A program made the translations under genes and the position numbers. This document shows positions 1 through 62,974 of a stretch of 64,000 bases of DNA, piece after piece. The DNA comes from Chiloscyllium plagiosum (Eukaryota). The stretch lies in contig NC_057719.1 of assembly GCF_004010195.1 (NCBI RefSeq), forward strand, positions 18,745,159-18,809,158, written 5' to 3'. The notes under the pieces were generated by a model. The model was given only the letters and a program-made list of their open reading frames with translations, did no database searches and was not told the DNA's origin. Numbering within the stretch: the first letter of the stretch is position 1; each line of letters begins with the position of its first letter.

Positions 1-165
1 TAAACCTCTGGAATTGGTAGGACTTGAACTCAGGCCACAAAAGCACCTCCATATATTATTTGAAACACCCATTTCCACTATGCAGAGACAAAAAATAGAA
101 ATTGCTGGAAAAGCTCAGCAGGTCTGGCAGCATCTAGAGGGAAATCAAAGTTAATGTTTCGTGTT

Positions 166-205
166 GAGTTCTAAGGAAGGGTCACGTGACTCGAAACGTT
201 AATTC
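166..205 (+). ncRNA. Degenerate minimal hammerhead ribozyme-like motif
   Basis: GAGTT-CTAAGGA(A)-GGGTCA cg TGACTC-GAA-ACGT-T-AATTC. Stem I GAGTT/AATTC, stem II and an ACGT palindrome are present, but core G5 is mutated to A. Confidence 0.4.
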
Positions 206-233
206 TGATTTCTCTCCACAGATGCTGCTAGAC

Positions 234-566
234 GTTTTTAGATTAGATTCGATTCGATTACTTACAGTGTGGAAACAGGCACTTCGGCCCAACAAGTCCA
301 CACCGACCCTCCGAAGAGCAACCCAGCCAGAACCATTCCCCTGCATTTACCCCTTTACCTAACACTATGGAGAAATTTAGCATGGCCAATTCACCCAACC
401 TGCACATTTTTGGACTGTGAGAGGAAACCGGAGCACCTGGAGGAAACCCACGCGGACACGGGGAGAATATACAAACTCCACACAGACAGTTGCCTGAGGT
501 GGGAATTGAACCTGGATCTCTGGCGCTGTGAGGCAGCAGTGCTAACCACTGTGCCACCGTGCTGTC
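234..566 (-). mobile_element. HE1 (V-SINE superfamily) tRNA-derived SINE, full length
   Basis: Minus strand shows A box GGTGGCACAGTGG, B box GGTTCAATTCC, central GCGTGGGTTTCCTCCAGGTGCTCCGGTTTCCTC domain, and a CR1-like tail ending in (AATCT)n-like repeats. Confidence 0.92.
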
Positions 567-794
567 CTGCTGAGCTTTTCCAGCAATTTCTATTTTCGTC
601 CCTGATTTACAGGATCTGCAGTTCTTTCGGTTTTTTACCCATTATGTGAGATCCTGGGAATGGCAAAAAAAAACCCTTCAATCGATTTGGGAAAAACTCC
701 AGAAAACACTCTCAAGCTTTGTAAAAGTGGGTTATTCAAGATTGTCATGCAAACTGACAGACATATTCTCAAATACCCAACTATTTTCTATAAA

Positions 795-4858: not shown

Positions 4859-5819
4859 TGCAGAGTTAATGTTTTGAGTCCAGTGATCCTTCACCAGATC
4901 AGAGTCATAGCTTAGAAAAGATAACTAGATTGAATCAGACATTATGGTCCATTTAATCTCATGCTTCTAACTTGACAATTTTACTTCCTTTCTGAAATGG
5001 GAAATGTGTGGGTGGTTGTTTTGATCCTGTGGAGATATTCTAAAAAGAATAATAATGATACCATCACCCCTCATAAACTTCTCTCCATTTGTGATTTGAA
5101 ATGTTCCTCCATGTATCAAATGTTAGGGAAATATTGCATGCTGTTCCAAAGTTTTGGTTCCATTGAAATAAGAAGGATATTTCTTTTGCTTTTTGTCTTT
5201 TGATAAATACGCTCATGTATAATCATAATGCTGCATGCAAAGACAAAGATTTGATTTACTGGTCATCGAGAGGGGCACATGTCAGTCTATAGTATGATAC
5301 ATGAATGAATCAAACAATGGAGCTAGTAACCAGCTGCTTCTTGACAAATAGCACTTATATCATAGCAGTGTCGTCCTGTCATCATCTGCATTCACCCTAA
5401 TTAACAAACATCTGTTTCCCATTTTCATTTACACAAAGAACAAGCTTGTCTAATCTATTACCTCTAATTCCCGATTCTCCCTGGGAAGATATTCCCGATC
5501 TCAAAGCTTTATTTCTGACATGAGTAAGCCTTTAAATAAATGACCATGCAGCATTAACACTAAACCAAATTTTTATACACTTTTTATCCCTGATAATCGC
5601 ACAGATTGTCTCCCACCCACTGAGTGTTACAATGGCTCTGTAGTTTTTGGAATATTCGTAACATTACTGCTGTAAATCAAGCATATTTCAAATTGTTTAA
5701 CATTTAAATGGTGGTAGCAATCAAAAAAATTAAACTGACTCAGAATCCTCATGGTCCTTAGGCTCAAGAATCTCCCAGCGCTATCAGGCTGGCACCTTCT
5801 ATTATTCCTGCCCTGATCT

Positions 5820-7674: not shown

Positions 7675-8046
7675 AAAGTAAAGTCCCCACAGTTCCAGAG
7701 AACTGGAGAGCTGCTTTCTCTTGAGTGAGAGACAACTGGTAGTGAGTTTAATGTAAGGGTCACACTGCCTCAGGAAAGGGGTGAGGTTGAGAAGTTGGGA
7801 CCTTCACGGTGACCTTGGAGGTAATAAGTTCAGTTGATTGGCCAGCTGTTTTGCAATGCAGTGACACCAGTAGCTTCAATTCCTGATAGGAAAAAATGAG
7901 GACTGCAGATGCTGGAGATCAGAACTGAAAAATGTGTTGCTGGAAAAGTGCAGCAGGTCAGGCAGCATCTCCTGCTCCTGGGATGCTGCCTGAGCTGCTG
8001 CGCTTTTCCAGCAACACATTTTTCGGTTCAATTCTTGCACCAGCTG
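7675..8046. mobile_element. tRNA-derived SINE with inverted 5' half (3' half on minus strand 7675-7816; 5' half on plus strand 7817-8046)
   Basis: Both halves match the colinear copy at 54893-55050. Confidence 0.6.
7886..8024 (-). mobile_element. Fold-back Penelope-tail insertion (family A), no ribozyme segment
   Basis: Arms GAAAAATGTGTTGCTGGAAAAGTGCAGCAGGTCAGGCAGCATC / GATGCTGCCTGAGCTGCTGCGCTTTTCCAGCAACACATTTTTC. TSD GCTTCAATTCCTG (7873-7885) / GGTTCAATTCTTG (8025-8037). Confidence 0.75.
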
Positions 8047-9450: not shown

Positions 9451-10346
9451 GGCTATCAAACAATTCCTTAGATACCTGCCACTGCATCTGTATTATCCTA
9501 CATTTTCAAATAGACTCTTAGTTTTTTTTGGCCAACATTGCCTTCAAATCCTCAGTCTAAAAGACTGGTTTCTCACCTTCATAACAAGCTTGTAATTCTA
9601 TCATGTTATCATATCTGTTGCTTAGAGGCTTCTTTACTTTAGGTTATTGATTGTACTTTATGAGGTCTGGAATTATCTGTATTGCTCTAAGAAATTGTCC
9701 CAAATATACTTTATGAACTCACTCTGAACTTAGGGGGAAGCAGAATTTGTTAAACACTTCCAGTGTGGTGATATTTCTTATGACCAGGGTGGAAATGAAA
9801 AAGTGCGTTTCGTGGCTATTTTCTTTATTGATTTGGTTAGGTTGAACAGGTTACAAGCGTGGGAGAGAAAGTTCATGATCCATTGTATCTGAGTAGCCAT
9901 GTGGGTGACTTATGAAACACCTTCAATGTAGAGGAGTGATTAAAGAATGTGGCTTTTGAGGTCTAGTCTATTAGTGGGGAATGTAGGGAAGGAGAAATTT
10001 GTGATTTGGATGTACAGAAGTTACGATTTTGGTGAATGTGATAAATGCATCCTTTTGCAAAGTTGGGAAGAATGCTCTGGATCTACCTGTGCTCATAAGG
10101 AAAGGTGGAGGACAGTAAAAGAAGCACATAAGCAAACCTTTTGGGCATCTAATGACCCTGATACACTTCCTCACTTGGTTAATCTGGCTGGAAGCTCACT
10201 CTTACTTCCTAGTCATCATCAAAATCGATCATGCAAATATAATATAGGCCCTTCACTACTGAGCTTGTTCCATTAAAAATATGTACTTGGTCACAACTTT
10301 AGCAGGATCGTGAGATCTGAAGATCATAAGAGATAGAAGCAAGAGT

Positions 10347-10584
10347 AGATTAGAGTGGTGCTGGAAAAGTACAGCAGTTCAGGCAGCATCCGAGAAGCAG
10401 GAAAATCGACATTTTGGGCAAAAACCCTTCATCAGGAATATGATCAGAATCTATTCCTGATGAAGGGATTTTGCCTGAAATGTCGATTTTCCTGCTCCTT
10501 GGATGCTGCCTGAACTGCTGTGCTTTTCCAGCACCACTCTGATCTAGAATCTGGTTTCCAGCATCTGCAGTCCTTGTTTTTACC
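10347..10584 (+). mobile_element. Fold-back Penelope-tail mini-insertion (family A) with hammerhead-like motifs on both strands
   Basis: Arms 10347-10440 and 10452-10545 are near-perfect inverted repeats. 13-bp TSD TAGAAGCAAGAGT at 10334-10346 and 10585-10597. The right arm plus tail matches the Penelope 3' end at 12137-12268. Confidence 0.88.
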
Positions 10585-11297
10585 TAGAAGCAAGAGTGGG
10601 CCAATTGGCCCCATAAACCTGCTCTATCGTTCAACAGGATCATGGTTGATCAAACACTCCTCATGGCAATACTCCTGCCTTTTCTCTGTAACCCTTGATT
10701 CCTCTACTGATCAAGAGTTTATCTATTTCAGCCTTAAATATATCCTGGTACTATGCCCCATTTCTCTCTGTGGCAAGGAGTTACAAAGGCCCACGATTTT
10801 CTGAGTTTCTCCTCATCTCAGTCTTAAATTAGAAACCTTCTATTTTAAGACTGTACCCTCTGATCCTAGATTCTCCTTTGAGGGGAAACATCCTCCAACT
10901 ATTTGCCCAATCAAGCCCCTTCAGGATGTGGTATGTTTCAATGAGACCACCCCTCATTCTTCTAAACTCCAATGTGAGCCTCCACAGTATCTGCTCCCAG
11001 GAGGACCAGTTCCACCACAAAACACACCAGATGGCCTCCTTCTTTAGAGACCGCAATTTCCCTTCCCATGTGGTTAAGGATGCACTCTAACGCATCTCGT
11101 CCACATCCCGCACCTCCGCCCTCAGACCCCACCCCTCCAACCGTAACAAGGACAGAACGCCCCTGGTGCTCACCTTCCACCCTACCAACCTTCGCATAAA
11201 CCAAATCATCCGCCGACATTTCCGCCACCTCCAAACAGACCCCACCACCAGGGATATATTTCCCTCCCCACCCCTTTCCGCCTTCCGCAAAGACCGT

Positions 11298-11899
11298 NNN
11301 NNNNNNNNNNNNNNNNNNNNNNNNNNNNNNNNNNNNNNNNNNNNNNNNNNNNNNNNNNNNNNNNNNNNNNNNNNNNNNNNNNNNNNNNNNNNNNNNNNNN
11401 NNNNNNNNNNNNNNNNNNNNNNNNNNNNNNNNNNNNNNNNNNNNNNNNNNNNNNNNNNNNNNNNNNNNNNNNNNNNNNNNNNNNNNNNNNNNNNNNNNNN
11501 NNNNNNNNNNNNNNNNNNNNNNNNNNNNNNNNNNNNNNNNNNNNNNNNNNNNNNNNNNNNNNNNNNNNNNNNNNNNNNNNNNNNNNNNNNNNNNNNNNNN
11601 NNNNNNNNNNNNNNNNNNNNNNNNNNNNNNNNNNNNNNNNNNNNNNNNNNNNNNNNNNNNNNNNNNNNNNNNNNNNNNNNNNNNNNNNNNNNNNNNNNNN
11701 NNNNNNNNNNNNNNNNNNNNNNNNNNNNNNNNNNNNNNNNNNNNNNNNNNNNNNNNNNNNNNNNNNNNNNNNNNNNNNNNNNNNNNNNNNNNNNNNNNNN
11801 NNNNNNNNNNNNNNNNNNNNNNNNNNNNNNNNNNNNNNNNNNNNNNNNNNNNNNNNNNNNNNNNNNNNNNNNNNNNNNNNNNNNNNNNNNNNNNNNNNN
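11298..11899. other. Assembly gap (602 N) inside Penelope element
   Basis: Run of N. Confidence 1.
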
Positions 11900-12136
11900 C
11901 ATGACTTGTCCTACCTGCCTATCTTTTTTTCCACCTATCCACTCCACCTTCCTCTCTGACCTATCACTTTCATCCCACCCCCAACCATCCATTGTACTCT
12001 TTGCTACCTTCCCCATCTTCCTCCCTGACCTATCACCTTCATCTCCACCCCCACTCACCTATTGTACTCTATGCTACTTTCTCCCCATCCCCACCCTCCT
12101 CTCATTTATCTCTCCACCCTGCATGCACTCTGCCTG

Positions 12137-12174
12137 TATTCCTGATGAAGGGCTTTTGCCCGAAACATTGATTT
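12137..12174 (+). ncRNA. Minimal type I hammerhead ribozyme-like motif in Penelope 3' terminal region
   Basis: TATTC-CTGATGA-A-GGGC TTTT GCCC-GAAA-CATTG-ATTT. The core boxes and 4-bp stem II are intact. CATTG is consistent with CpG decay of CGTCG (TGTCG at 10481). Confidence 0.6.
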
Positions 12175-13340
12175 TCCTGCTCCTTGGATGCTGCCTGAAC
12201 TGCTGTGCGTTTCCAGCACCACTCTACTCCAGAATCTGGTTCCCAGCATCTGCAGTCATTGTTTTTACCTAAACTCCAATGAGTCGAGCATCAACCTGTT
12301 TTGCTTTTGCTCATAAGACAATCCCTCCAAGCCGGGGATCATCCAACTGATCTTTCTCTGAACCGCCTCCAATGAAATAATATCTTTCCTCAGGTAAGGG
12401 GACCAAAACTGCTCATAATGTTCCAGATATTGTCTTGCCTTCTACAATTGCAGTATGCTTTCTCTACCCTAATATTCCAATTCACTTGGAATAAGAACAA
12501 ACATTCTATTAGCCTTCATGATTGCCAGCTTTCTATATCTCATGCACAAATATGCCCAAATCCCTTTGTGTTGCAGTTTATCTCCATTCAAATAATGTTC
12601 AGTCCTTTTGTTCTCCCTTCCAAACTGAACAACTTCACATATTCCCACATTATACTCCATTTCAATTTTTTGCCCACTTACATAACCTTTCTTTAAATTA
12701 CTTGTGTCCCTCTCCAGCTATTTCTGTGTCATCTGTAAATTTGACAACTGTACATTGCTTGCATCCTCCAAGTCATTGGTATATTTTGTAAACAGCTGTG
12801 ATCCCAAGACAGATCCCTGAGGAACCCCATGAAGTTACAGGTTGCCAACCTGAAAAAAAAAACTTATCTACATTGTCTATGGCCTGTCCATGAGTAGATT
12901 CTCTATCCATGCCAATATACTGCCCACATGGGTTCTTATAACTTAACCTTTTGTCAGATAACTTATCGAACATCTTTTGAAAGTCCAAATACAAGATATC
13001 TATTTTTTCCCCTCTATTCATTCTGCTTGAGACTTAGTCAGTCATGACATCCCTTTGCCTGATTAGATTATGAATTTCCAAACATGCTGCTAACATTCCT
13101 TAATAATTGATTCCAACATTTTTGCAAAAATAAACATTCAGCTAATTGATCTATAGTTACCCACCTTTTGCCTCCCTTTTTTTTGGAAAAGGGTCATCAC
13201 ATTTGTGATTTTCAATCCTCTGGTATCTCTCCTGAATCCACCACCACTGTAACTACTCGTCTTAGGATCCTAGCTCTGCAATTTGTCACCCTGAAATTCT
13301 TCAAAGTTATATGATTTCTTATTGTTGCAAATTTGTGTGC

Positions 13341-14155
13341 ATAGAATCATAGAGTCATAGAGATGGACAGCACGGAAACAGACCCTTCAGTCCAACTCGT
13401 CCATGCTGACCAGATATCCCAACCCAATCTAGTCACACCTGACCAGCACCTGGCCCATATCTCACCAAACCCTTCCTATTTATGTCCCCATCCAGATGCA
13501 TTTTAAATGTTGCAATTGTACTAGCCTCCACCACTTCTTCTGGCAGCCCATTCCACACACGCACCAGCTCTGTATGAAACAGTTGCCCCTTAGTATACAT
13601 ATACCTTTCTCCTCTCACCCTAAACCTATGCCCTCTAGTTCTGGACTCTCCCACCCGAGGAAAAAGACCTTGTCTATTTACCCTATCCATGGCCCTCATG
13701 ATTTTATAAAGATCTATGAGGTTACCCCTCAGCCTCTAACGCTCCAGGGAAAATAGCCCCAGCCTATTCAGCCTCTCTCTAGAGCTCAAATCCTCCAAAC
13801 CTGGCAACATCCTTGTAAATCCTTTCTGAACCCTTTCAAAGTTTCACAACATCCTTCTGATAGGATGGAGACCAGAATTGCACACAATATACCAAATGTG
13901 GTGTAACCGATGTCCTGTTCAGCCACAACATGACCTCCCAACTCCTATACTCAATACTCTGACCAATAAAGGAAAGCATACCAAACGCCTTCTTCAGTAT
14001 CCTAGCTACCTGTGACTCCACTTTCAAGGAGCTATGAACCTGCACTCCAAGGTCTCTTTGTTCAGTAACACTCCCTAGGACCTTACCATTAAGTGTATAA
14101 GTCCTGCTAAGATTTGCTTTCCCAAAATGCAGCACCTTGCATTTATCTGAATTGA
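13341..14155 (-). mobile_element. HER1-like CR1 LINE, 5'-truncated
   Basis: Peptides DKCKVLHFGKAN and HLVYCVQFWSPSYQKDVVKL; tail (CTATGACT)n. Confidence 0.92.
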
Positions 14156-14792
14156 GTGAATATATTCTCTGATACATTAGTCTTGTAAGAGATTTGTCAA
14201 CAATTACTATAACATCATAAATCCCATATACCACTCAAATAATATTCTTGATATTTATTTATCATATATGAATGATCATCATAAATAATATTAAATGGAT
14301 TGATCACTTATAAAACATAACTAAATGTGAAGTTATACACTTCAGTGATAAAAACAGAAAGCAGGAGTATTATTTAAAAGGTGATATATTGGGAAGCATG
14401 GCTGTACAAATGGATCTGACTGTCCTTGTACACCAGTAAATGAAGTTTCACAGGCAGGTGCAGCAAACAATGAGGAAGGCAAATACTCTATTGGCCTTCA
14501 TTGCAATAAGATTTGAGTTCAGAAGTAGGGATAATCTCAATGTGGTTATACAAGGGCTTGGTGAAACCACATCTGGAGTATTGCATGCAGTTTTAATGGT
14601 CACCTTACTTGAAAAAAAACATATGCTTGCCAGAGTGGAGGTTTGCTAGGTTGATAGTGGAAATGGCAGTACCGTCCTCCAAAGAGAGATTGGTTCTGCT
14701 GAGCCTGTATTCACTCGGGTTTAGATGGATGAGAGGGCATCTGATTGAATTATGTCAAGTTCTAACAGGGCTAGACAACAGAATTCAGGGAG

Positions 14793-15008
14793 TTAAAAAT
14801 CACACAACAGCAGGTTATAGTCCAAAAGGTTTAATTGGAAGCACACTAGCTTTCGGAGCGTCGGTCCTTCATCAGGTGATACCACCTGATGGAGAGGCGA
14901 CGCTCCGAAAGGTAGTGTGCGTCCAGTAAAACATGTTGGACTATAACCTGATGTTGTGTGATTTTTAGCTTTGTACACCCCAGTCCAACACCGGCATCTC
15001 CAAATCAT
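14793..15008 (+). mobile_element. Fold-back mini-insertion (family B, probably Penelope-derived) with hammerhead-like motifs on both strands
   Basis: Arms 14793-14878 and 14883-14967 are inverted around ATAC, followed by an unpaired ~40-nt tail. Perfect 12-bp TSD GAATTCAGGGAG at 14781-14792 and 15009-15020. Confidence 0.85.
14844..14878 (-). ncRNA. Minimal type I hammerhead ribozyme-like motif (best preserved in window)
   Basis: Minus strand CAC-CTGATGA-A-GGACC GAC GCTCC-GAA-AGCT-A-GTG: stem I CAC/GTG, stem II with one mismatch, palindromic AGCT, predicted CUA cleavage triplet. Confidence 0.6.
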
Positions 15009-18756: not shown

Positions 18757-19400
18757 TTGGTATGCTTTCCTTTATTGGTCAGAGTATTGAGTACAGGAGT
18801 TGGGAGGTCATGTGTGGCTGTACAGAACATTGGTTAGGCCACTGTTGGAATATTGCATGCAATTCTGGTCTCCTTCCTATTGGAAAGATGTTGTGAAACT
18901 TGGTAGAGTTCAGAAAAAATTTACAAGGATGTTGCCAGGGTTGGAGGATCTGAGCTACAGGGAGAGGCTGAACAGGCTGGGGCTGTTTTCCCTGGAGCAT
19001 CGGAGGCTGAGGAGTGACCTTATAGAGGTTTATAAAATTATGAGGGGCATGGATAGGATAAATCGACAAAGTCTTTTCCCTGGGATTGGGGAGTCCAGAA
19101 CTAGAGGGCATAGGTTTAGGGTGAGAGGGGAAAGATATAAAAGAGACCTAAGGGGCAACTTTTTCACGCAGAGGGTGGTACGTATATGGAATGAGCTTCC
19201 AGAGGATGTGGTGGAGGCTGGTACAATTGCAACATTTAAGAGGCATTTGGATGGGTATATGAATAGGAAGGGTTTGGAGGGATATGGGCCGGGTGCTGGC
19301 AGGTGGGGCTAGATTGGGTTGGGATATCTGGTCGGCATGGACGGGTTGGACTGAAGGGTCTGTTTCTATGCTGTACATCTCTATGACTCTATGACTCTAT
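18757..19400 (+). mobile_element. Young HER1-like CR1 LINE 3' end
   Basis: Open 170-aa ORF2 C-terminus (LYRTLVRPLLEYCMQFWSP...NFFTQRVVRIWNELP); (CTATGACT)n tail; highly similar to copies at 26120, 32562 and 60589. Confidence 0.95.
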
Positions 19401-25221: not shown

Positions 25222-25345
25222 AGTTAAGAATCACACAACACCAAGTTATGGTCCACCAGGTTTATTGGAAGCAATAGCATTCAGAGCACTGCTCCTTTAG
25301 CAGGATTGTCCACCCCAGTCTAACATCGGTTCCTCCACATCATGG
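25222..25345 (+). mobile_element. Degraded/deleted family B mini-insertion
   Basis: Starts like 14793 (AGTTAAGAATCACACAACACC) and ends like 15008 (CACCCCAGTCTAACATCGGTTCCTCCACATCAT). TSD TTACCAAGCTCA/TTACCAAGATCA at 25210-25221 and 25346-25357. Confidence 0.7.
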
Positions 25346-26119: not shown

Positions 26120-27278
26120 CAGAGTCATAGAGTCATAGGAATGTACAGCATGGAAACAGACCCTTCGGTCCAACCCGTCCATGCCGACCAGATACCCCAA
26201 CCCAATCTAGTCCCACCTGCCAGCACCCGGTCCATATCCCTCCAAACCCTTCCTATTCATATACCCATCCAGATGCTTTTTAAATGTTGCAATTGTACCG
26301 GCCTCCACCACATCCTCTGGCAGCTCATTCCATACACGTACCACTCTCTGCATGAAAAGGTTGCCCCTTAGGTCTCTTTTATATCTTTCCCCTCTCATCC
26401 TAAACCTATGCCCTCTAGTTCTGGACTCCCCCATCCCAGGGAAAAGACGTTGTTTATTTATCTTATCCATGCCCCTCATGATTTTATAAACTTCTATAAA
26501 GTCACCCCTCAGCCTCTGACACTCCAGGGACAACAGCTCCATCTTACTCCAGCTCTCCCTATAGCTCAAATCCTCCAACCCTGGCAACATCCTTGTAAAT
26601 CTTTTCTGAACCCTTTCAAGTTTCACAACATCTTTCAGAATGGAAGGAGACTAGAATTGCATGCAATATTCCAACAGTGGCCTAACCAATGTCCAGTACA
26701 GCTGCAATATGACCTCCCAACTCCTGTACTCAATACTCTGACCAATAAAGGAAAGCATACCAAACGCTTTCTTCACTATCCTATCTACCTGTCACTCCAC
26801 TTTCAAGGATCTATGAACCTGCACTCCAAGGTCTCTTTGTTCAGCAACACTCCCTTGGACCTTACTATTAAGTGTATAAATCCTGCTAAGATTTGCTTTC
26901 CCAAAATGCAGCACCTCGCACTTATGTGAATTAAACTCCATCTGCCACTTCTCAGCCTATTTGCCCATTTAATCAAGATCCCGTTGTAATCTGAGGTAAC
27001 CTTCTTGGCTGTCCACTAACACCTCCAATTTTGGTGTCATCAGCAAACTTACTAACTGTACTTCTTATGCTCACATCCAAATCATTTGCATAAATGATGA
27101 AAAGTAGTGGACCCAACATCAATCCTTGTGGCACTCCACTGGTCACAGGCCTCTAGTCTGAAAAACAACCCTCCACCAACACCCTCTGTCTTCTACCTTT
27201 GTGCAAATTATGTATACAAATGGTGAATTCTCCCTGTATTCCATGCGATCTAACTTGCTCATCAGTCTCCCATGGGGG
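26120..27278 (-). mobile_element. HER1-like CR1 LINE, 5'-truncated, includes RT FADD region
   Basis: ORF 26207-26626; minus strand AAGTTTGCTGATGACACC = KFADDT at ~27035-27052. Confidence 0.95.
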
Positions 27279-32561: not shown

Positions 32562-33226
32562 GCAGGTAGATAGGATAGTGAAGAAGATGTTTGGTATGCT
32601 TTCCTTTGTTGGTCAGAGTATTGAGTACAAGAGTTGAGAAGTCATGTTGCGTCTGTACAGGACGTTGGTTAGGCCACTGTTGGAATATTGCATGCAATTC
32701 TGGGATCCTTCCTATCGGAAAGATGTTGTGAAACTTGAAAGGGTTCAGAAAAGATTTACAAGGATGTTGCCAGGGTTGGAGGATCTGAACTACAGGGAGA
32801 GGCTGAACAGGCTGGGGCTGTTTTCGCTGGAGCGTCGGAGGCTGAGGGGTGACCTTATAGAGGTTTACAAAATTATGAGGGGCATGGATAGGATAAATAG
32901 GCAAAGTCTTTCCCTGGGGTTGGGGAGTCCAGAACTAGAGGGCATAGGTTTAGGGTGAGAGGGGAAAGATATAAAAGAGACCTAAGGGACAACGTTTTCA
33001 CGCAGAGGGTGGTATGTGTATGGAATGAGCTGCCAGAGGATGTGGTGGAGGCTGGTACAATTACAACATTTAAGGGGCATTTGGATAGGTATATGAATAG
33101 GAAGGGTTTGGAGGGATATGGGCCGGGTGCTGGCAGGTGGGACTAGATTGGGTTGGGATATCTGGTTGGCATGGACGGGTTGGACCGAAGGGTATGTTAC
33201 CATGCTGTACATCTCTATGACTCTAT
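32562..33226 (+). mobile_element. Young HER1-like CR1 LINE 3' end
   Basis: ORFs 32644 and 32955 are separated by one frameshift; CTCTATGACTCTATG tail. Confidence 0.95.
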
Positions 33227-37381: not shown

Positions 37382-38180
37382 GATGGGGTCCGTTTGTAGG
37401 TGGCGGAAATGTCCGAGGATGATGCGGTGTATATGGAGGTTGGTGGGGTGGAAGGTGAAGATCGGGGGTTTCTGTCCTTGTTGTGGTTGCAAGGGTGGGC
37501 TTCAAGGGCAGAGTTACCCGAAGTGGATGAGATGCGCTGGAGGGCATCATCAATCATGTGAGAGGGGACCCCACCACCAGAGATATATTTCCCTCCCCAC
37601 CCTTATCTGCTTTCCGTAAAGACCATTCCCTCTGTGACATACCTCGTCAGGTCCACACCCCCCCCAACAATCCACTCTCCCCTCCCAGCATCTTCACCTG
37701 CCACCGCAGGAATTGCAAAACCTGCGCCCACACCTCCCTCCTCACCTTCATCCGAGGCCCGAAAGGACCCTTGCACATCCATCAAAGTTTCACCTGCACT
37801 TCCAAACGTCATTTATTGTATCCGTTGCTCCCAATGCGGTCTCCTCTACATTGGGGTGACAGAACGCCTGCTTCAGAGAACATCTTCGGGCCACCCACAC
37901 CAACAAACCCCACTGCCCCATGGCCAAACACTTCAACTCCCCCTTCCACTCCGCCGAGGACATGCAGGTCCTGGGACTCCTCCATCGCCACTCCTTACCA
38001 CCCAAAGCCTGGAGGAAGAACGCCTCATCCTCTGCCTTGGGACCCTCCAACCCCATGGCATCAATGTGGATTTCACCAGTTTCCTCAATTCCCCTCCCCC
38101 ACCTTACCCCTGTTCCAACCTTCCAGCTCAGCACTGTCCTCATGACCTGTCCCATCTGTCCAGCTTCCTTCCCACCTTTC
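37382..38180 (+). mobile_element. Penelope-like retroelement with GIY-YIG endonuclease remnant and inverted 5' segment (37382-37563 on minus strand)
   Basis: Peptides NVIYCIRCSQCGLLYIGVTER, AKHFNSPFHSAEDMQVLGL and LEEERLILCLGTLQPHGINVDF; homologous to 10975-12268. Confidence 0.92.
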
Positions 38181-38714
38181 TGCAATCTTGCACTATAGAA
38201 AATCACAGTATGGAAAACTGCTATAGAAGATCACGCAGGAGAAGATCGCTAATAGAAAATCATTATACCCGTTGAGTAGAAAGTTCACATTATCCAAACA
38301 ACGTTCTCAATTTGTCTTTTGTGTTGTAGCCAATTCGTGCTGATGGAACACGTGTTACAGCAGAACTCCCTGTAATTATTGTTAAGCTCAAATCTCTAGT
38401 CCATAACTTCTTTCTAAAAGGCAGGTCAACTGAGAAATTTTTCAGATGATTAAAAAATCGCTAACTTTTGTAATGCCTCTATAAATAATGGAACTTGATT
38501 ACTGATGAGTACCCCAGTGAGTCATTATACTACACTGTAAAAAGTACCTCATTGGCTGTGAAGCAAAGCATTATAGAGTTGCAGGTCTTTCTTTCTTCCA
38601 AGTACATAGCCAACAATCCTGGTTTCCTCTCATACAGTAATCTTAAAAAATGCCTTCCATCTAGGTGAGTGTGTGCTGTGTGCTGAGTCTCAGTTTTACT
38701 GCATTTGCATGAGG

Positions 38715-40254: not shown

Positions 40255-42416
40255 AGAGAAGGATGGTCAATACAGGACTGAAGGTGTTGTGTCTGAATGC
40301 ATGCAGTATGACCGAAATTGGAGGTAGACATCACAGAAACAAGGCTGCAAGGGGATTAGGACTGAGAGCTAAATGTCCAAGAGTATACATCCTATCGAAA
40401 AGACAGCAAGTGAGCAAAGGGAGTGGGGTTACCTTTTTAGTAAGAAGCGAAATTAAATCCATAGCAAGAAATGATGTGGTGCTCAGATAATGTAGACTCT
40501 ACGTGGGTAGAGTTGAGGAACTGCAAAGGTTAAAAAAACATTTTGGGAGTTATGTACAGGCCTTCAAATAGTAGTCAGGATTTGAGGCACAAGATAAACC
40601 AGGAGATACAGGAGGCGCATAAGAAAGGAAAGATTACAATGATCATGGAGGATTTCAATACAGAGGGGAACTAATGAGTGGCATGGTGACTCAGTGGTTA
40701 GCACCGCTGCCTCACAGCACCAGGGACCTGGGTTTGATTCCAGCCTCGGGCAACTGTCTATATGTAGTTTGCACATTCTCCCCGTGTCTGCGTGGGTTTC
40801 CTCCGGGTGCTCCGGTTTCCTCCCACAGTCCAAAGATGTGCAAGACAGATGAATTGGCCATGCTAAATTGCCCCATAGTGTTAGTGCATTAGTCAGGGGT
40901 TAATATTGGGAAGGGGAATTGGTCTGGGTGGGTTGCTCTTCGGAGGGTCGGTGTAGACCTGCTGGGCCAAAGAGCCTGTTTCCATACTGTAGAGTATCTA
41001 TCTACCTAAAGGAATGGTGAGGCAACCATGGCTTACAAGGGAATTCAGGGACTACATAAAAGCAAAAGAGAAAGCATATAATGCAGCGAAGGGCAGTGGG
41101 AAGCCTACAAAGACCGACAGAGGACAATGAAGAAAGAAATGAAGAGGGAGAAGATTAAATATGAGAGTAAGATAGCCAGTAATATAAAAGAAAGTTGCAA
41201 GAGTTTCTTTAAATATATAAAGGGCAGAAGGGGATGTTGGACAGCGGGAAAATAATGCTGAAGAAGTAGTAATGGGGAACAAAGAAATAGCTGACGAACT
41301 GAACAAGTACTTCGCATCAGACTTCTTGGTGGAAGACACAAGTCCCAAAAGTTCAAGACAGTCATTGGGTGGGGGGATGAGTATGGTGGCCATCACCAAG
41401 GAGAAGGTGCTAAAAAAACTGAAAGGTCTAAAGTTGAATAACTTACCTGGACCAGATGGACTACACTCCGAAGTTCTAAGGGAGATAGCTGAAGACACAG
41501 TGAAGGCGTTTAGTGGTGATCTTTCAGGAACCATGGAAGTCAGGCAGAGTCCCAGAGGACTGGAAAATCACTAATGTAACCCCCTCTGTTTAAGAAAGGA
41601 GGAAGTCAAAAGAAGGGAAATTACAGGCCGATTAGACTGACCCAAGACATTAGCAAGATTTTGAAGTCCATTATGAAGGATGAGATTTCTGAATACTTGA
41701 AAGTGTATGATAAAACAGAGAAAAGTAAGCATGGTTTCATCAAGGGGAGCTCATGTCTGACAAATATGCTAGAATTCTTTAAGGAGATGACAAGCAGGTT
41801 AGAAAAAGGAGAAACAATGGACGTTATCTACCTGGACTTCAAGAAGGCCTTTGACAAGGTGCCACACAGGAGGCTGCTGAGTAAGATAAGAACCCATGGT
41901 GTCAGAGGCAAGGTGCTAGCATGGAGATGAGCTTGAATGTCTGGCAGAAGGCAAAGAGTGGGGAAAAAAGGGTCCTTCTCAGGATGGAAGCCGGTAACAA
42001 GAAGTGTTCTGCAAAGCTCAGTATTGGGACCACAACTTTTCACTTTATACATGAATGATCTAGATGAAGGAACTGAGGGCATTCTGGCTAAGCTTGCAGA
42101 TGCTGCAAAGATAAGTGGAGATACAGGTAGTATTGAGGAGGTGGGAGTCTGCAGAAGGAATTAGTCAGGTTAGGAGAGTGGGAAAAGAAATAGCAGATGG
42201 AGTACAGCATGGGAATGTGTGAGGTCATGCACTTTGCTGGAAGAATAGAGGCATGGACTATTTTCTAAATGGGTAAAAAATTCAGAAATCTGAAGTGCAA
42301 AGGGACTTAGGAGTCTCCTAAGGTAAACTTGCAGGTTGAGTCTGTAGTTAGTAATGATGGCATTTATTCCAAGGGCTAGAATATAAAAGCAAGGATGCAC
42401 TTCTGAGGATTTATAA
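40255..42416 (+). mobile_element. CR1 LINE ORF2 remnant (endonuclease start through RT)
   Basis: GLKVLCLNACS, IMEDFN, IADELNKYFAS, LPGPDGLHSEVLRE, DVIYLDFKKAFDKVPH, SVLGPQLFTLYMNDL. Confidence 0.9.
40676..41007 (+). mobile_element. HE1 SINE nested in CR1 ORF2
   Basis: A/B boxes, central domain and tail as in the other HE1 copies. Confidence 0.92.
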
Positions 42417-42832: not shown

Positions 42833-44254
42833 ACCAGTCCTTTGGGAAATGCAAGATGTTTGAATACATTACTTAGCTCCTCATCATTTAAACCCTATGG
42901 CCAAAACTTTTTAATCTTCCTTGCAAAATATTTTTACACAGATCTTCACACCTTTCCGCTAAATTGAGCAGGCCATTGGTTTTCTCAAGGATGGCTGTGC
43001 TGAATCTGGAGTCGCTTACATACTGTTTAACAGTTATGACACTGTCAAAGAAGCAGGCACCAGCAGCTGTTTTCACTAAAAAAAATCACAGTAAGCCTTT
43101 AAAAGCTGGTAAAGATGTAGCTTTTTTCCATTTACACCACAGGGAGCCGCTCCATGGTACACAGCCCTGAGAGCAGGACTCTAAAAGCCACCCTAAGTGA
43201 GAGCAATTAGGTAATGTGTATTTATCACCCCCTGGAGACTGGTTCTACACTGTTTGTTTTGAAGATTTAAAATGGTAGATTTGAAGAACACTTCCTGCAT
43301 TTACTGAGATGCTCGAACAGTTGCGCTGTCTTGTACTGTTCTGAATGCTGGATCTTAAAGCAAATTAGGTTGAGGTCTTAAAGAACTAAACAAAGCAGTG
43401 GGACAACTCTATATAATTGTTCTGAATGTACACAATTGATATTTGACTTAAGTTGTACAAATTTCAATTCATTTGCATGGAAAACATTTCTGTCCCCAAC
43501 TCCCTTTCTTCTGAATAGTGTGCCTTCAAAGTTAAGAATTACTTGCCGGTCCACTGCCCCTTATGACTGTAGCAAACATGCCCTAAGTCAGATGCATCAG
43601 GGAGTTAGGGTGTTTCTATTTTATTAGAAAACCATGCTCCCATCATTGATTACTAACATAGACCTCCTAATGTCTGCTTCTGGCTTCATAATATACTTCA
43701 CTGTTTTGTATGTTTGGTTTTTATGTCATAATGACAAATTGTATCAGGAAGCAAGATGCAGATGCACAGCACTCACTAAATGCTGGAAACCATAACAAAA
43801 TGTGTTCTATAGAGCTGGGGAATCTGGTGAAAAAATAATATGTTTGCTTCTTTTCATTGTAGTCTTTTCTAGAGCACTTCACAGTGACTTTTCCATGTTG
43901 GTCTTCATCTTGAACTTAAGTGACCTGAAGCTGCACATTGTAATGATAATAGCACAGAAGCTCAGTACATTTAGGTTAGGGACCTCTGGGTTCACAGCAG
44001 TCTTCTACATATGCCTTCAGAGCTGGATGTTGTAAATGATGAGGAGCGGCAAATTAGAAACACAACTCAGAAACTGTACTGAGATTCAAAATCACTGTTA
44101 GAAAAAGGCTGCTGGTTTGGAGAATCCCATTAGAGTACCCCATGCCAATTTAGAAAGTAGGAAATGTCACCAAAATTTCAGAAAATGGCACAAGGTACTG
44201 AATATGAGGTGGGAATTTATTAAGGTCAATGATAGGTATGGAAACAGGCATTTA

Positions 44255-44445
44255 AAAGCAAAATACTGCAGGTGTCAGGGATCTGAAATAAAAACAGAAG
44301 GGTCTGGTCAAACTTAGCAGCTTCTGTGGAGAGAGAGATAAAGTTTTATGATTCAATTGACTCAAACCATTAACTCTAGAGCACTAAGTTTCTCTCTCCA
44401 CAGATATGCCAGACCTGTTGAGTTTCTCCAGCAGTTTCTGTTTGA
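44255..44445 (-). mobile_element. Degraded fold-back short element (family C)
   Basis: AAAGCAAAATACTGCAGGTG...TCTCTCTCCACAGATATGCCAGACCTGTTGAGTTTCTCCAGCAGTTTCTGTTT; similar to 84-640. Confidence 0.6.
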
Positions 44446-45148
44446 ATTAAACAGGCAAGCCTGATAGAATGTGTATCCCATTGAGGCTACCTGAACCTTG
44501 TTTGGGTGAATAAATGTCGCAAGAAATATTTTCACCGCTGCTTATAAGTTGTTTGGTAGCTTTCCTGTCACTGCCCTCTTTCCCATTCTGTTTGGTCAAT
44601 TGTGGTAAAATAAGTGCACTTTGAAATCTAATGGCAAGAGATTCTTGTCTTAATGCGGTATATTGCATGATAATAATGATGTAAAACCTACATGAGTATT
44701 ATAAATATTATTGAGAAGATGATGAGGAAGACACCGATGATCTTTTGAGAACCTAAACTATTTTCCCACAAGTCCACATGACATCACCTTACTGAGTGGT
44801 GCTTAAAGTACTTCACAGCATTAACCCTTTCAAACCTTACACCTATATAACCTTTCCCCAAGCTCTTTTCTCTCGTCAATATCTATACATGTTTCTTTGT
44901 AATTACTTCCACAACTACTCCATCTCCCCCAAGTTTCTGACTTCACAAATATAAATGGTTTGAAGGACTCACTATTCTTCCAGAATGCATTCTCTTCATA
45001 TTGTTAGATTGCTAAGTTTAAAATACTGTTCACTTTCTGACAGTGTGAAGTCAGAAAGACCCTTTATACTAAAAAAAAAGCTCTTAACTCTAAGATTTCT
45101 TTCATGAAGAACAGTTGCTTTGTTGAAATAGGCACTTCTTTTTTTGCA

Positions 45149-45349
45149 GTCAAAAAGTGTGGTGCTGGAAAAGCACAGCCAGTCAGGCAGCATCTGAGGA
45201 GCAGGAGAGTTGATATTTCATGCATAAGCACTTCCTGATGAACCGCTTATGCTCAAAACATCAACTCTCCCGCTGCCTGACCGCTGTACTTTTCTAGTGC
45301 CACACGTTTTGACTCTGATCTCTAGCATCTGTAGTCCTCACTTTCTCCT
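45149..45349 (+). mobile_element. Fold-back Penelope-tail mini-insertion (family A variant) with degenerate hammerhead motif
   Basis: Inverted arms GTCAAAAAGTGTGGTGCTGGAAAAG / CTTTTCTAGTGCCACACGTTTTGAC; CTGATGA at ~45236; approximate TSD ACTT(C)TTTTTTTGCA at 45134-45148 and 45350-45362. Confidence 0.78.
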
Positions 45350-45481
45350 ACTTTTTTTTGCAATCTGCTGAATCCTGCAACCAGGTAATTTTCTCTTTTT
45401 GGTAGCATCCTAGATCTTCAAACCAGACAAAATCCTCTTCAACTTATCCTGAATCTGCTCATCCCATCTCAACGAATCCTT

Positions 45482-49729: not shown

Positions 49730-50223
49730 TTAGATTCAATTCTTAGATTACTTACAGTGTGGAAACAGACCCTTTGGCCCAACAAGTCCACACCAGCCCG
49801 CAACCCACCCAGACCCATTCCCCTACATTTACCCTGTCACCTAACACTTAAGGCAATTTAGCATGGCCAATTCACGTTCCCTAGATGCTGCCTGACCTGC
49901 TGTGCTGTTCCAGCAATAAAGTTTCAGCTTTGATCTCCAGCGTCTGCAGACCTCACTTTCTCCAACAAGTCCACACCAGCCCGCAACCCACCCAGACCCA
50001 TTCCCCTACATTTACTCCGTCACCTAACACTTAAGGCAATTTAGCATGGCCAATTCACCTAACCTGCACATTTTTGGACTGTGGGAGGAAACCAGAGCAA
50101 ACCCACGCAGACACAGGGAGAATGTGCAAACTCCACACAGAGAGTCACCTGAGGCGAGAATTGAACGTGGGTCTCTGGCGCTGTGAAGCAGCAGTGCTAA
50201 CCACTGTGCCACCATGCCGCCCA
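49730..50223 (-). mobile_element. HE1 SINE with internal 97-bp duplication flanking a Penelope-tail insert
   Basis: HE1 homology; direct repeats at 49779-49875 and 49962-50058. Confidence 0.9.
49876..49961 (+). mobile_element. 86-bp Penelope 3' tail fragment (family A-like)
   Basis: GATGCTGCCTGACCTGCTGTGCTGTTCCAGC...GATCTCCAGCGTCTGCAGACCTCACTTTCT resembles 12187-12268 and 45275-45349. Confidence 0.8.
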
Positions 50224-51111: not shown

Positions 51112-51335
51112 AAAACAAAAGCTGAAAAAGCTGTGGCTGCTGGAAATCAGAAACAAAAACATAAATTGCTGGAAAAGCTCAGCAGGTCTGGCAGCACAAG
51201 TGGAGATGCATCAGAGTTAATGTTTCGGGTCTACTGACCATTCCTCTGAGTCTGGTCGCTGGACCTGAAACATTAACACTGATTTCTCTCCACAGGTCCT
51301 GCCAGACTTGCTGTTTTCCAATAATTTCTGTCTTT
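51112..51335 (-). mobile_element. Fold-back short element (family C)
   Basis: AAATTGCTGGAAAAGCTCAGCAGGTCTGGCAGCA...GTTAATGTTTCGGGTC / GACCTGAAACATTAAC...TGCCAGACTTGCTG inverted arms. Confidence 0.7.
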
Positions 51336-51761
51336 GTTTGTAAATATCATATACCATAGTCCATGACACAACTCAGAGAGCATGGAGATATTAATGGCTT
51401 GAAAAGCCCATGTGCCAACTAGTGAATAGGAAACATTTTCAGAGTTCAGGTTTGTAGAGAATGTTGATGAAATAATAGAAAAGAAATAGGGTTGGTTCCT
51501 CATGAGACAACAACAGAAACTTGAATTTGTGGGGCACTACCACCAGCTAAATGGACAGACCATCTCACAGTGTAGCAACTCACCATAGATTTTCAACAGC
51601 ACCTTCAAAACTCAAAACCTCTACGGGTTTGAAGGATAAGGCCAACAGATATGTGGGAGCACCGACCACCTGCAACTTCCCCTCTAAGCCACATCCTGTC
51701 TTGGATATATCGCTGTTCTTTCAGAGTAGCTGGCTTAAAATTGTTAAACTTTCTTCATACT

Positions 51762-60588: not shown

Positions 60589-61999
60589 GTCATAGAGTCA
60601 TAGAGTCATAGAGATGTACAGCATGGAAACAGACCCTTCGGTCCAACCCGTCCATGCCGAACCAGATAATCCAACCCAATCTAGTCCCACCTGCCAGCAC
60701 CCGGCCCATATCCCTCCAAACCCTTCCTATTCATATACCCATCCAAATGCCTCTTTAATGTTGCAATTGTACCAGCCTCCACCACNNNNNNNNNNNNNNN
60801 NNNNNNNNNNNNNNNNNNNNNNNNNNNNNNNNNNNNNNNNNNNNNNNNNNNNNNNNNNNNNNNNNNNNNNNNNNNNNNNNNNNNNNNNNNNNNNNNNNNN
60901 NNNNNNNNNNNNNNNNNNNNNNNNNNNNNNNNNNNNNNNNNNNNNNNNNNNNNNNNNNNNNNNNNNNNNNNNNNNNNNNNNNNNNNNNNNNNNNNNNNNN
61001 NNNNNNNNNNNNNNNNNNNNNNNNNNNNNNNNNNNNNNNNNNNNNNNNNNNNNNNNNNNNNNNNNNNNNNNNNNNNNNNNNNNNNNNNNNNNNNNNNNNN
61101 NNNNNNNNNNNNNNNNNNNNNNNNNNNNNNNNNNNNNNNNNNNNNNNNNNNNNNNNNNNNNNNNNNNNNNNNNNNNNNNNNNNNNNNNNNNNNNNNNNNN
61201 NNNNNNNNNNNNNNNNNNNNNNNNNNNNNNNNNNNNNNNNNNNNNNNNNNNNNNNNNNNNNNNNNNNNNNNNNNNNNNNNNNNNNNNNNNNNNNNNNNNN
61301 NNNNNNNNNNNNNNNNNNNNNNNNNNNNNNNNNNNNNNNNNNNNNNNNNNNNNNNNNNNNNNNNNNNNNNNNNNNNNNNNNNNNNNNNNNNNNNNNNNNN
61401 NNNNNNNNNNNNNNNNNNNNNNNNNNNNNNNNNNNNNACCTTTAACCGTTTCAAGACATCCAGCACTTCCTCCTCTGTAATCTGGACATTTTGCAAGATG
61501 TCACCATCTATTGCCCTACAGTCTATATCTTCCTTATCCTATTCCACAGTGAAGACTGATGCAAAATATTCATTTAGTATCTCCTCCATTTTCTGTGGCT
61601 CCACACAAAGGCCGCCTTGCTGATCTTTGAGGGGCCTTATTCTCTTCCTAGTTACCCTTTTGTCCTTAATATATTTGTAAAAACCCTTTGGATTCTCCTT
61701 AATTCTATTTACCAAAGCTATCCCATGTCCCCGTTTTGCCCTCCTGATTTCCCTCTTAAGTATACTCCTACTGCCTTTATACTTGAAGGATTCACTCGAT
61801 CTATCCTGTCTATATCTGACATATGCTTCCTTCTTTTTCTTAACCAAACCCTCAATTTCTTTAGTCATCCAGCATTCCCTATACCTACCAGCCTTCCCTT
61901 TCACCCTGACAGGAATATATTTTCTCTGGATTCTTGTTATCTCATTTCTGAAGGCTTCCCATTTTCCAACCGTCCCTTTACCTGTGAACATCTGCCTCC
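60589..61999 (-). mobile_element. Young HER1-like CR1 LINE spanning an assembly gap
   Basis: 3' end and (CTATGACT)n tail at 60589-60785. ORF2 mid-region KWEAFRNEITRIQ...KENPKGFYKYIK...ILNEYFASVFT...ITEEEVLDVLKRLK at 61438-61999. Confidence 0.92.
60786..61437. other. Assembly gap (652 N) inside CR1
   Basis: Run of N. Confidence 1.
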
Positions 62000-62974
62000 A
62001 ATCGTGTTTGATATTATTGAATGGATACCAGATGCAAGATGTTTGGCTTTTCCAGGTGCTCTCCCATGGTTCTGTTTGGGTTGAGAGTAAGATGTGACAT
62101 GGAGAAATGTTTGTGGGACAGGGAAATACACATTTCCAGGGAAAAGATTTGTGATGGCAAGTTAATTATTTCACAATTATTTCCTTCAAAGATAATCAAG
62201 TCATACGCAGTGTCATGATCCTGCGAGAATTGAGAAGAAATTCAAACACCCAGGTGCTAACTGAAAAAAATTGCCAATAGGTTTTAAAGAAATGATCTTT
62301 ATAATGCAAGAAACAAGTAATGCAAACACAACTATTTAAATGCTGTCTTGACTGAATATTTGTGCTTAACTTTGGAAAACATAACTAATGCACTATCATG
62401 TGTACTTTAAATTAAAATATTAAACAGGACCTCATCCTTTTTCCAAATAGAAGTAAATACCACTACTAGCTCTGCTGAGAGTCAGCTAGACTCTTTTTTG
62501 CTTGCTCTCTCCACGGATGCTGCTTGACCCGCTGTGATTTCCAAATTTCTTTTGTTTTCAGCACTCATCTTTTTCCTGATGACTTAATCCAAGAAAATCT
62601 TTGGTCACTTCTCAAGCTATTGCAAATTCTTTCATTTCCAGGGATGAGAACAAAGTACCACAGCGCTCAGAAATTCTATTTCTCCTCAGCATTACCGCAA
62701 TTGCCTGAGGTACGAAATTTTATTAGTAACTTCCATTAGCTTTTGACTCAGGGATCACCCGACATTTCTTCAAAAGCTGACAACTGCACATTCAACTCAA
62801 CTGTAGGCTTCACTACCCTCGTGGCTATAGCCTCCATCACTGAAATACTCCTGGCTTCTGAAGGCCCTTTGCTTGAGGTCTACTGCTGCTTTTCAAATCT
62901 TAGCTGTCTCTTCCTTTCTCTGCCTTTCACTGACCAACTTGAGTGCTTTCAGCTCCACATCTGTTCCAAAAGGA

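Follow-up and report, generated by a model that had tools for sequence, protein, structure and literature searches.

The window, a 64,000-nucleotide stretch of DNA, contains a 238 bp insertion (10347-10584) flanked by a TSD whose left (10334-10346, plus strand) and right (10585-10597, plus strand) copies agree at 13 of 13 positions. Both the insertion and its 13 bp TSD had been described in the original prediction, and the duplication stands above all 300 random position pairs that served as background, none of which scored above 10 and eight of which scored at least 8. The insertion is assembled from two arms of the end of a Penelope-like element (PLE), numbered here so that hammerhead C3 is +1. 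In particular, an inverted arm (10347-10440, minus strand) carries the PLE end from position -5 to +88 without the tail, an 11 nt centre (10441-10451) follows, and a sense arm (10452-10546, plus strand), which is a pseudo-LTR (pLTR) piece that begins at -5, leads into an unpaired PLE tail of 38 nt (10547-10584, plus strand). Measured over 10346-10440 and 10452-10546, the arms are 95 nt long, 93% complementary and 11 nt apart, which confirms the expected inverted arms of about 94 bp with an unpaired tail of about 39 nt; with the centre included, 91 of 98 positions are identical. The RNA fold of the insertion has a calculated energy of -177.9 kcal/mol (z of -26), which none of 200 shuffles equalled. 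The 11 nt centre has no match to the upstream UTR of the PLE at 12137, and its reading as a spliced upstream exon was dropped, as the letters before the two arms differ. By eye, the centre looks like a slipped copy of the adjoining arm end.

At 121 of 132 positions the sense arm, together with the tail, agrees with 12137-12268, and the two thus correspond, as proposed, to the last 130 nt or so of the element at 10975-12268 (plus strand). This element is a 5′-truncated PLE whose middle reads N in the window, with a 13 bp TSD (10962-10974 and 12269-12281), and it has neither an upstream pLTR nor an inversion. A coding remnant near its 5′ end (10980-11297, plus strand) covers the RT thumb and linker, and in protein alignment it is 91% identical over 106 aa to two database proteins, P0001 and P0002. 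Matches to this coding piece were found for 11 of 27 candidate proteins, the best two of which are 93-94% identical and are named from Chiloscyllium punctatum, which makes a bamboo shark or a near relative the likely source of the window. P0001 matches RVT_1 (E of 7e-8) and P0002 matches GIY-YIG (E of 2.5e-4, slightly below the curated cut-off); both are collinear with the coding pieces of the window, which holds such pieces and no full ORF.

Further, a PLE coding fragment at 37384-38190 (plus strand) contains a Cys-rich CX4CxxC linker and a GIY-YIG remnant, together with a 5′ inversion of twin-priming geometry, where the inverted piece spans PLE positions 11059-11244 and the direct piece begins at 11238. 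A TSD was looked for around this fragment, and none was found. Its piece at 37562 gives a weak GIY-YIG match in Pfam (E of 0.015), while three of the four window frames searched have no Pfam match. The linker is in frame at 37531 and is present in P0002; it is not readable in the copy at 10975. A CX2-5CxxC linker between RT and EN marks the Neptune clade (PMC8557442, PMC3846280). Judged by their coding remnants, the parents are endonuclease-bearing PLEs with an RT followed by GIY-YIG, and the Cys-rich linker suggests that they are of Neptune type. The end match and the RT/GIY-YIG coding remnant together support the proposed PLE origin of the insertions.

The shared PLE end carries a minimal hammerhead motif, which a descriptor search locates at three places. 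The copy in the inverted arm (10403-10440, minus strand) has lost G12 (AAAA) and has an AUGU stem III; the copy in the sense arm (10452-10490, plus strand) has the full core with one stem II mismatch, AUGU and a GUC triplet; and the copy in the PLE end (12137-12174, plus strand), with C3 at 12142 and a predicted cut at 12169/12170, shows ACAU and GUU-type decay. A strict descriptor, which demands the full core and at most one stem II mismatch, gives three matches in the window versus one in 15 shuffles. A relaxed descriptor, which allows one core change and requires stem I and a palindromic stem III, gives four matches versus none in 15 shuffles. The three copies, each damaged chiefly at CpG, read AAAA-TG-TC, GAAA-TG-TC and GAAA-CA-TT, so that an intact ACGT stem III with a GUC triplet survives in none of them. 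The core that they were said to rebuild jointly is found at the family level, where the majority of raw reads in one public RNA run (X21) restores G at 12167 (1111 of 1354) and C at 12169 (1125 of 1355).

Three PLE families covary in stem III and triplet (ACGU/GUC, AGCU/CUA and ACGU/GUU), with a stem II of 4 or 5 bp, and at the family level the features of a minimal type I hammerhead are found: core, extra base, stem II, palindromic stem III and NUH. The descriptor matches and the restored family core support this identity; self-cleavage is a prediction from the sequence. An Rfam search has no hammerhead among its seven matches at E ≤ 5, and the exact hammerhead pattern has no match in metagenome and viral contigs. 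A second motif with 14 metagenome loci was dropped as chance, because its window match never extends beyond 22-27 nt. According to the folding calculations, forming the hammerhead costs 54 kcal/mol inside the hairpin versus 3-6 kcal/mol in the unfolded PLE end. The hammerhead derives from the PLE end, and once the hairpin is complete it would be without function.

The element census, which consists of the window elements and a read alignment, includes seven further short elements in the window. Family A, to which the PLE at 12137 belongs, is represented by a fold-back without a hammerhead (7886-8029, minus strand; tail arm from +46, inverted arm from +34, TSD of 11 bp with one mismatch) and by a fold-back whose arms overlap at the centre (45149-45352, plus strand; TSD 10 of 10). 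Family C includes a symmetric fold-back with an AGCU stem III and CUA triplet (14793-15008, plus strand; TSD 12 of 12) and an element in which the inverted arm is joined straight to the tail with no overlap (25222-25345, plus strand; TSD of 12 bp with one mismatch). Family B comprises a fold-back with its tail on the right that is split by a later insertion at about 235-565 (83-639, plus strand), a decayed fold-back with its tail on the left (44251-44448, minus strand; TSD 9 of 9) and another with its tail on the left (51112-51339, minus strand). In addition, a solo family A end with its tail and no inversion (49878-49963, plus strand) lies between two copies of a duplication of about 97 bp. 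The description of the fold-backs as traceable to a Penelope 3′ end in the window needs correction: three PLE families are present, and of the seven further elements 45149 and 7886 alone belong with the PLE at 12137.

The eight short elements, about 125-240 bp long and present at a density of eight in 64 kb, share one anatomy across the three families. All eight have a one-sided tail of 35-40 nt, with boundaries set from self-alignments and by eye, and in all eight the tail-less arm stops 35-40 nt before the 3′ end. The inverted arm is found in every element and a sense arm is paired with it in seven. The exception is 25222, where the second arm is absent and the inverted arm ends at the tail start; alternatively, one arm could have been deleted later. 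Accordingly, the fold-back design holds at six of the seven additional sites that had been listed, although 44255 is badly decayed, and it does not hold at 25222. TSDs of 9-13 bp exceed the random range at six of the eight elements, which bears out the statement that most sites have them; at 84 and 51112 a TSD was looked for and not found.

These short, palindromic, non-coding and abundant elements resemble DNA transposon derivatives (MITEs), or they might be chance hairpins. However, the z of -26 excludes chance, and a MITE should not have TSDs that vary from 9 to 13 bp, a one-sided tail, or a sequence that is the end of an RT/GIY-YIG element. The variable TSD, the RT/GIY-YIG origin and the arm geometry refute this reading, to which practically no weight can be given.

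The fold centres differ in all eight elements, as had been stated. The inner ends of the arms lie at -5/-5 (10347), -7/-6 (14793), -3 and -3 to +6 (45149), about -5 by eye and +19 (84), -1 (25222), +4/+10 (51112), +11/+19 (44255) and +46/+34 (7886), where the values for 45149, 51112 and 44255 may be off by several bases. In six of the eight elements an arm begins in the interval from -7 to +4, and none reaches further upstream; after a post-hoc window correction this clustering has a P of about 0.0005-0.02, which varies with the assumed span. At 7886, the arm without the tail extends 12 nt beyond the tail arm on the 5′ side. By eye, the arms also show discordant CpG decay, as if both had started as intact family sequence.

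The most probable explanation, favoured though well short of certain, is that the hairpins are dead PLE end-pieces, each from one insertion in which both nicked strands primed reverse transcription on the pLTR. In this mechanism the PLE protein would nick the target, and both strands would prime on the hammerhead-bearing pLTR, one of them from the end of the tail and the other from its start. Each cDNA would then terminate early, in most cases close to the 5′ edge of hammerhead stem I, where the candidate causes of a stop near -5 are the RNA 5′ end and an RNP block. The short cDNAs would be joined head to head through short homology or repair, and overlapping arms would require two RNA molecules or one that is re-copied. 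Two RNA start sites that bound the tail would leave one arm with the tail and one without it. In vitro, both target strands are cut and extended by an anole PLE protein, which initiates at two RNA sites that delimit the tail (PMC11167929), in data that concern a Poseidon-clade element, of another clade than the PLE of the window.

The geometry of three loci, namely the arms at 25222 and 7886 and the inverted fragment at 37384, points to two independent primings. Together with the eight differing centres, it supports the part of the original prediction in which a stereotyped truncation-plus-inversion arises afresh at each insertion, which is likely. In L1 twin priming, the second target strand primes internally and a 5′ inversion results. 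The same geometry is found at 25222 and 37384; unlike that process, most stumps in the window have overlapping cDNAs, which one RNA does not give.

A cDNA could instead run from the tail end to about -4, fold back through the 4 nt of stem I and copy itself as far as the tail start. Such self-priming at each insertion needs a single RNA for overlapping arms, and it agrees with the tail arm being equal or longer at 10347, 14793, 45149 and 84. Its geometry also fits two strand-switch joints in public contigs, 12138-12173 (6, 3, 0 and 1 contigs in four runs) and 12142-12174 (1 contig). However, the longer arm is on the tail-less side at 7886 and 25222, and since the tail-less arm at 7886 extends 12 nt further 5′, copying from the first cDNA cannot yield it. 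Moreover, the fragment at 37384 has a second priming that does not overlap the first, and self-priming leaves unexplained why copying would end at the tail start, where RT is known to initiate. Self-priming is rather unlikely as the general explanation, and it may apply to a subset of copies.

The palindrome could also form after insertion, from a copy with an inverted pLTR, a direct pLTR, the ORF, a second direct pLTR and the tail, where recombination between the direct repeats leaves the hairpin inside the original TSD. Both this complete arrangement and solo pLTRs have been described in Adineta (PMC3846280), and the end result would have the same appearance. Against such a collapse, near-complete loss is needed through repeats of only 80-130 bp, a sense pLTR is missing at 25222, and neither an upstream pLTR nor an inversion accompanies the longer PLE at 10975; we regard collapse as quite unlikely. 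Under twin priming, self-priming and collapse alike, each hairpin is a dead product.

A different outcome would follow if the hairpins were a non-autonomous, self-propagating family, retrozyme- or SINE-like, that is transcribed and that the PLE protein mobilises as entire units. pLTR sequence alone is mobilisable in trans (PMC3846280), and animal retrozymes, found in one chondrichthyan, are argued to derive from pLTRs (bioRxiv 10.64898/2026.07.22.740005). The centres, however, differ in all eight elements and across three families, and the discordant CpG decay of the arms, as seen by eye, also speaks against propagation as a unit. Each strand has one hammerhead, while retrozymes are defined by tandem hammerheads on the same strand; no tandem same-strand array is among the eight TRF rows, and the arms are head to head. 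The single hammerhead per strand, buried in the hairpin at a cost of 54 kcal/mol versus 3-6 in the unfolded end, makes a retrozyme-like family unlikely. The proposed retrozyme-like class is therefore unsupported by the head-to-head arms, the differing centres and the buried hammerhead.

Four public runs, aligned to 12051-12285 at 80% likeness, extend these observations beyond the window. The aligned records are 53,430 and 64,054 contigs from two organisms, 2,305 raw RNA reads (X21, fragmented poly(A) single-cell RNA data) and 8,047 contigs from a third organism. The first two numbers indicate that the PLE-end family is very abundant, and this very high copy number counts in favour of propagation. 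The commonest 5′ loose end in all four runs is 12138, which is position -4 (1110, 1200, 324 and 192 records); its loose-end consensus resembles other UTRs, with an agreement of only 0.32-0.45. The raw-read depth in X21 rises from 126 to 875 at 12138 and, close to where the tail begins, drops from 1585 to 468, steps that partly reflect subfamily differences. No pile-up of molecule starts or ends is listed in the read alignment, for which a fragmented library is uninformative. A separate run search listed no RNA data set with the sequence, a result that has no bearing on expression. A loose end at 12170 in 127 X21 reads was not used, as its consensus is not that of a hammerhead and it may come from one locus.

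An initiator-like motif at 12138 is a weak hint: it is absent from the window copy and arises only if the commoner pyrimidine is assumed at 12136. There is also a splice-acceptor-like site at about -17, and -4 is accordingly a candidate transcription start. In Drosophila, transcription begins within the pLTR, upstream of a short intron (PMC2377424), and the intron's 3′ end meets helix I (PMC4209133).

Strand-switch joints are scarce, with six kinds among the 15 joints listed out of 31. Three of the six are singletons, including 12142-12174; the others are 12138-12170 (10, 9, 0 and 2 contigs per run), which is the commonest among the joints listed, 12138-12173 and 12138-12187 (0, 4, 0 and 0 contigs). 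The same 15 listed joints include head-to-tail joints from 12269 to 12138 (7, 5, 0 and 1 contigs) and from 12271 to 12138 (5, 3, 0 and 0), and X21 supports none of the 15. In the rows with letters between the joined pieces, where the kind of joint is not given, 12137-12147 has varied partners. Assemblers and libraries lose hairpins, and the joint counts therefore cannot give the share of fold-backs.

The few recurring strand-switch joints and the head-to-tail joint from 12269 to 12138 (7, 5, 0 and 1 contigs) count for a propagating family. The absence of a dominant junction among the joints listed weighs against one, though the alignment is biased against hairpins and such a junction could be missed. 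The original prediction had stated that a self-propagating family would be contradicted if no two loci shared an identical fold junction; in the window none is shared among the eight elements, whereas in the public contigs a few joints recur, in at most 10 contigs per run among the joints listed. Overall, propagation as whole hairpins is very unlikely, and independent formation by two primings is retained as the preferred explanation.

The commonest strand-switch joint raises a tentative lead, with the chances standing well against it: the junctions may form a fossil map of PLE RNA ends in vivo, in which one arm would end at the RNA 5′ terminus (-4) and the partner arms would include a separate class that begins at +29. 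Its basis is that 12138-12170, seen in three runs (10, 9 and 2 contigs), links -4 to the first base past the predicted cleavage site; the deepest such case is not among the listed rows with letters between. Two confounds bear on it. The reference has two mismatches directly before 12170, and GA or stem I microhomology favours this joint regardless, where 12187 (+46, also GA) recurs as well; in family A, GA is likewise present at +3, +6, +21 and +56. For now, mismatches and microhomology could explain the joint equally well. For anole Poseidon, hammerhead cleavage is reported to be dispensable in vitro, with no RNA-seq reads that end at the cut site (PMC11167929), and an excess of arms starting at 12170 would therefore matter. 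If the lead were true, tens of thousands of shark stumps would provide the evidence, lacking so far, of template RNA cleavage by PLE hammerheads in transposition.

The minimal type I hammerheads of metazoan PLEs (PMC4209133, PMC6765202) share with the window motifs CUGANGA, an extra base before stem II, G10.1-C11.1, GAAA and a palindromic 15.2-16.2, and they too occur mostly as solo copies with opposite-strand pairs noted. Cervera and de la Pena (2014, PMC4209133) described pairs of minimal hammerheads on opposite strands, which lie 100-700 bp apart there versus 0-30 bp in the window; stem II is 4-5 bp and stem I is 2-5 bp in the window motifs. Sharks are not mentioned in the part of that account drawn on here, and its supplements may list shark motifs.

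Anolis Poseidon (Frangieh et al. 2024, PMC11167929) is alike in its two RT start sites bounding the tail, its cutting and extension of both strands and its hammerhead immediately upstream; it belongs to another clade, and the available part of the study gives no inversion model. The non-LTR retrozymes (Li, Clavereau and Pollet 2026, bioRxiv 10.64898/2026.07.22.740005) are likewise non-coding and pLTR-derived with a type I hammerhead. However, they are tandem by definition, with head-to-tail repeats and at least two same-strand hammerheads, whereas the window elements are head to head. A lizard Penelope is reported to be heavily edited (PMC5625713). The shark hairpins are predicted to form double-stranded RNA, and they may therefore be targets of RNA editing.

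No account of these shark stumps as such turned up in the literature search, whose reach excluded subscription journals as well as repeat databases, and the supplements of the retrozyme preprint may list shark motifs. The anatomy itself is established. Craig et al. (2021, PMC8557442) give an inverted 5′-truncated copy with a 30-40 bp tail as usual for PLEs, and a curation guide repeats this layout (PMC8969392). Arkhipova et al. (2013, PMC3846280) describe inverted pLTRs that are 37 bp shorter than direct ones, together with TSDs that measure 8-10 bp, palindromes at the 5′ ends of pLTRs, and solo pLTRs. The designation as an under-described system is thus not sustained, as the inverted pLTR, the 30-40 bp tail and the TSD are already in these sources (PMC8557442, PMC3846280).

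The insertions of EN+ PLEs (PMC8557442, PMC3846280) are among the closest known systems; they are likewise truncated at the 5′ end beside an inverted, truncated copy, and they share the one-sided tail, a TSD of about 9-13 bp, the pLTR hammerhead and head-to-head pLTR junctions. The difference is that inverted pLTRs are described there mainly around ORF-bearing copies, while here the unit shrinks to the pLTR alone and is dense. Because the hairpins are likely built afresh in the known PLE layout, the element kind is mostly ordinary, an additional lineage with a PLE anatomy and a ribozyme class that are both already known. With its tens of thousands of short copies, bounded by TSDs and belonging to three families, such a genome makes countable both how inverted ends arise and whether hammerheads cut in vivo.

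The 3′ UTR of the Penelope-like element (PLE) copy at 10975..12268 (+) contains a 70-bp unit that is present twice (11944-12081; 85%). Downstream, positions 12085-12125 hold a tract that is 84% pyrimidine, followed by CAG/G at 12122-12125 in nearly all reads. Together, these make a likely 3′ splice site for the intron in the pLTR, the pseudo-LTR end that bears the hammerhead, and the candidate site is about 17 nt upstream of the hammerhead core. By eye, an ATG frame at 12188-12268 stays open across the tail, which is the expectation if the ORF's first codons sit in the pLTR; in the copy at 10452, the sense arm of a hairpin insertion, the same frame is interrupted by a stop.

Other PLE remnants occur in the window. 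In a coding fragment at 37384-38190, 185 bp at the 5′ side are inverted; the outer end of this inverted stretch meets the beginning of the direct piece, the two overlapping by ~7 nt. Searches of this fragment for a pLTR and a target-site duplication found neither. In addition, a solo PLE end with its tail (49878-49963) is enclosed by two ~97-bp copies of host sequence, matching at about 94 positions, across a region of 49781-50061. For a target duplication of the PLE class, this one is unusually long. A profile search returned further decayed PLE-end fragments at 62505-62570 (E 4e-14) and 4861-4895 (E 0.002).

The fold-back at 84, a similar hairpin element, is split by a ~330-bp insertion of a different repeat (235-565), and related sequence was seen again by eye near 49740-50120. 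The window's ORFs include many LINE-like RT remnants, presumably CR1-type (13433-14234, 18791-19312, 26207-26650, 32638-32958, 41221-41930 and 61539-62165).

Finally, head-to-tail joints from 12269-12271 to 12138, present in 7+5+1 and 5+3 contigs, delimit a unit of ~132 nt. These joints may be direct-repeat dimers bearing two same-strand hammerheads, and would be the better place to search for retrozyme-like units.
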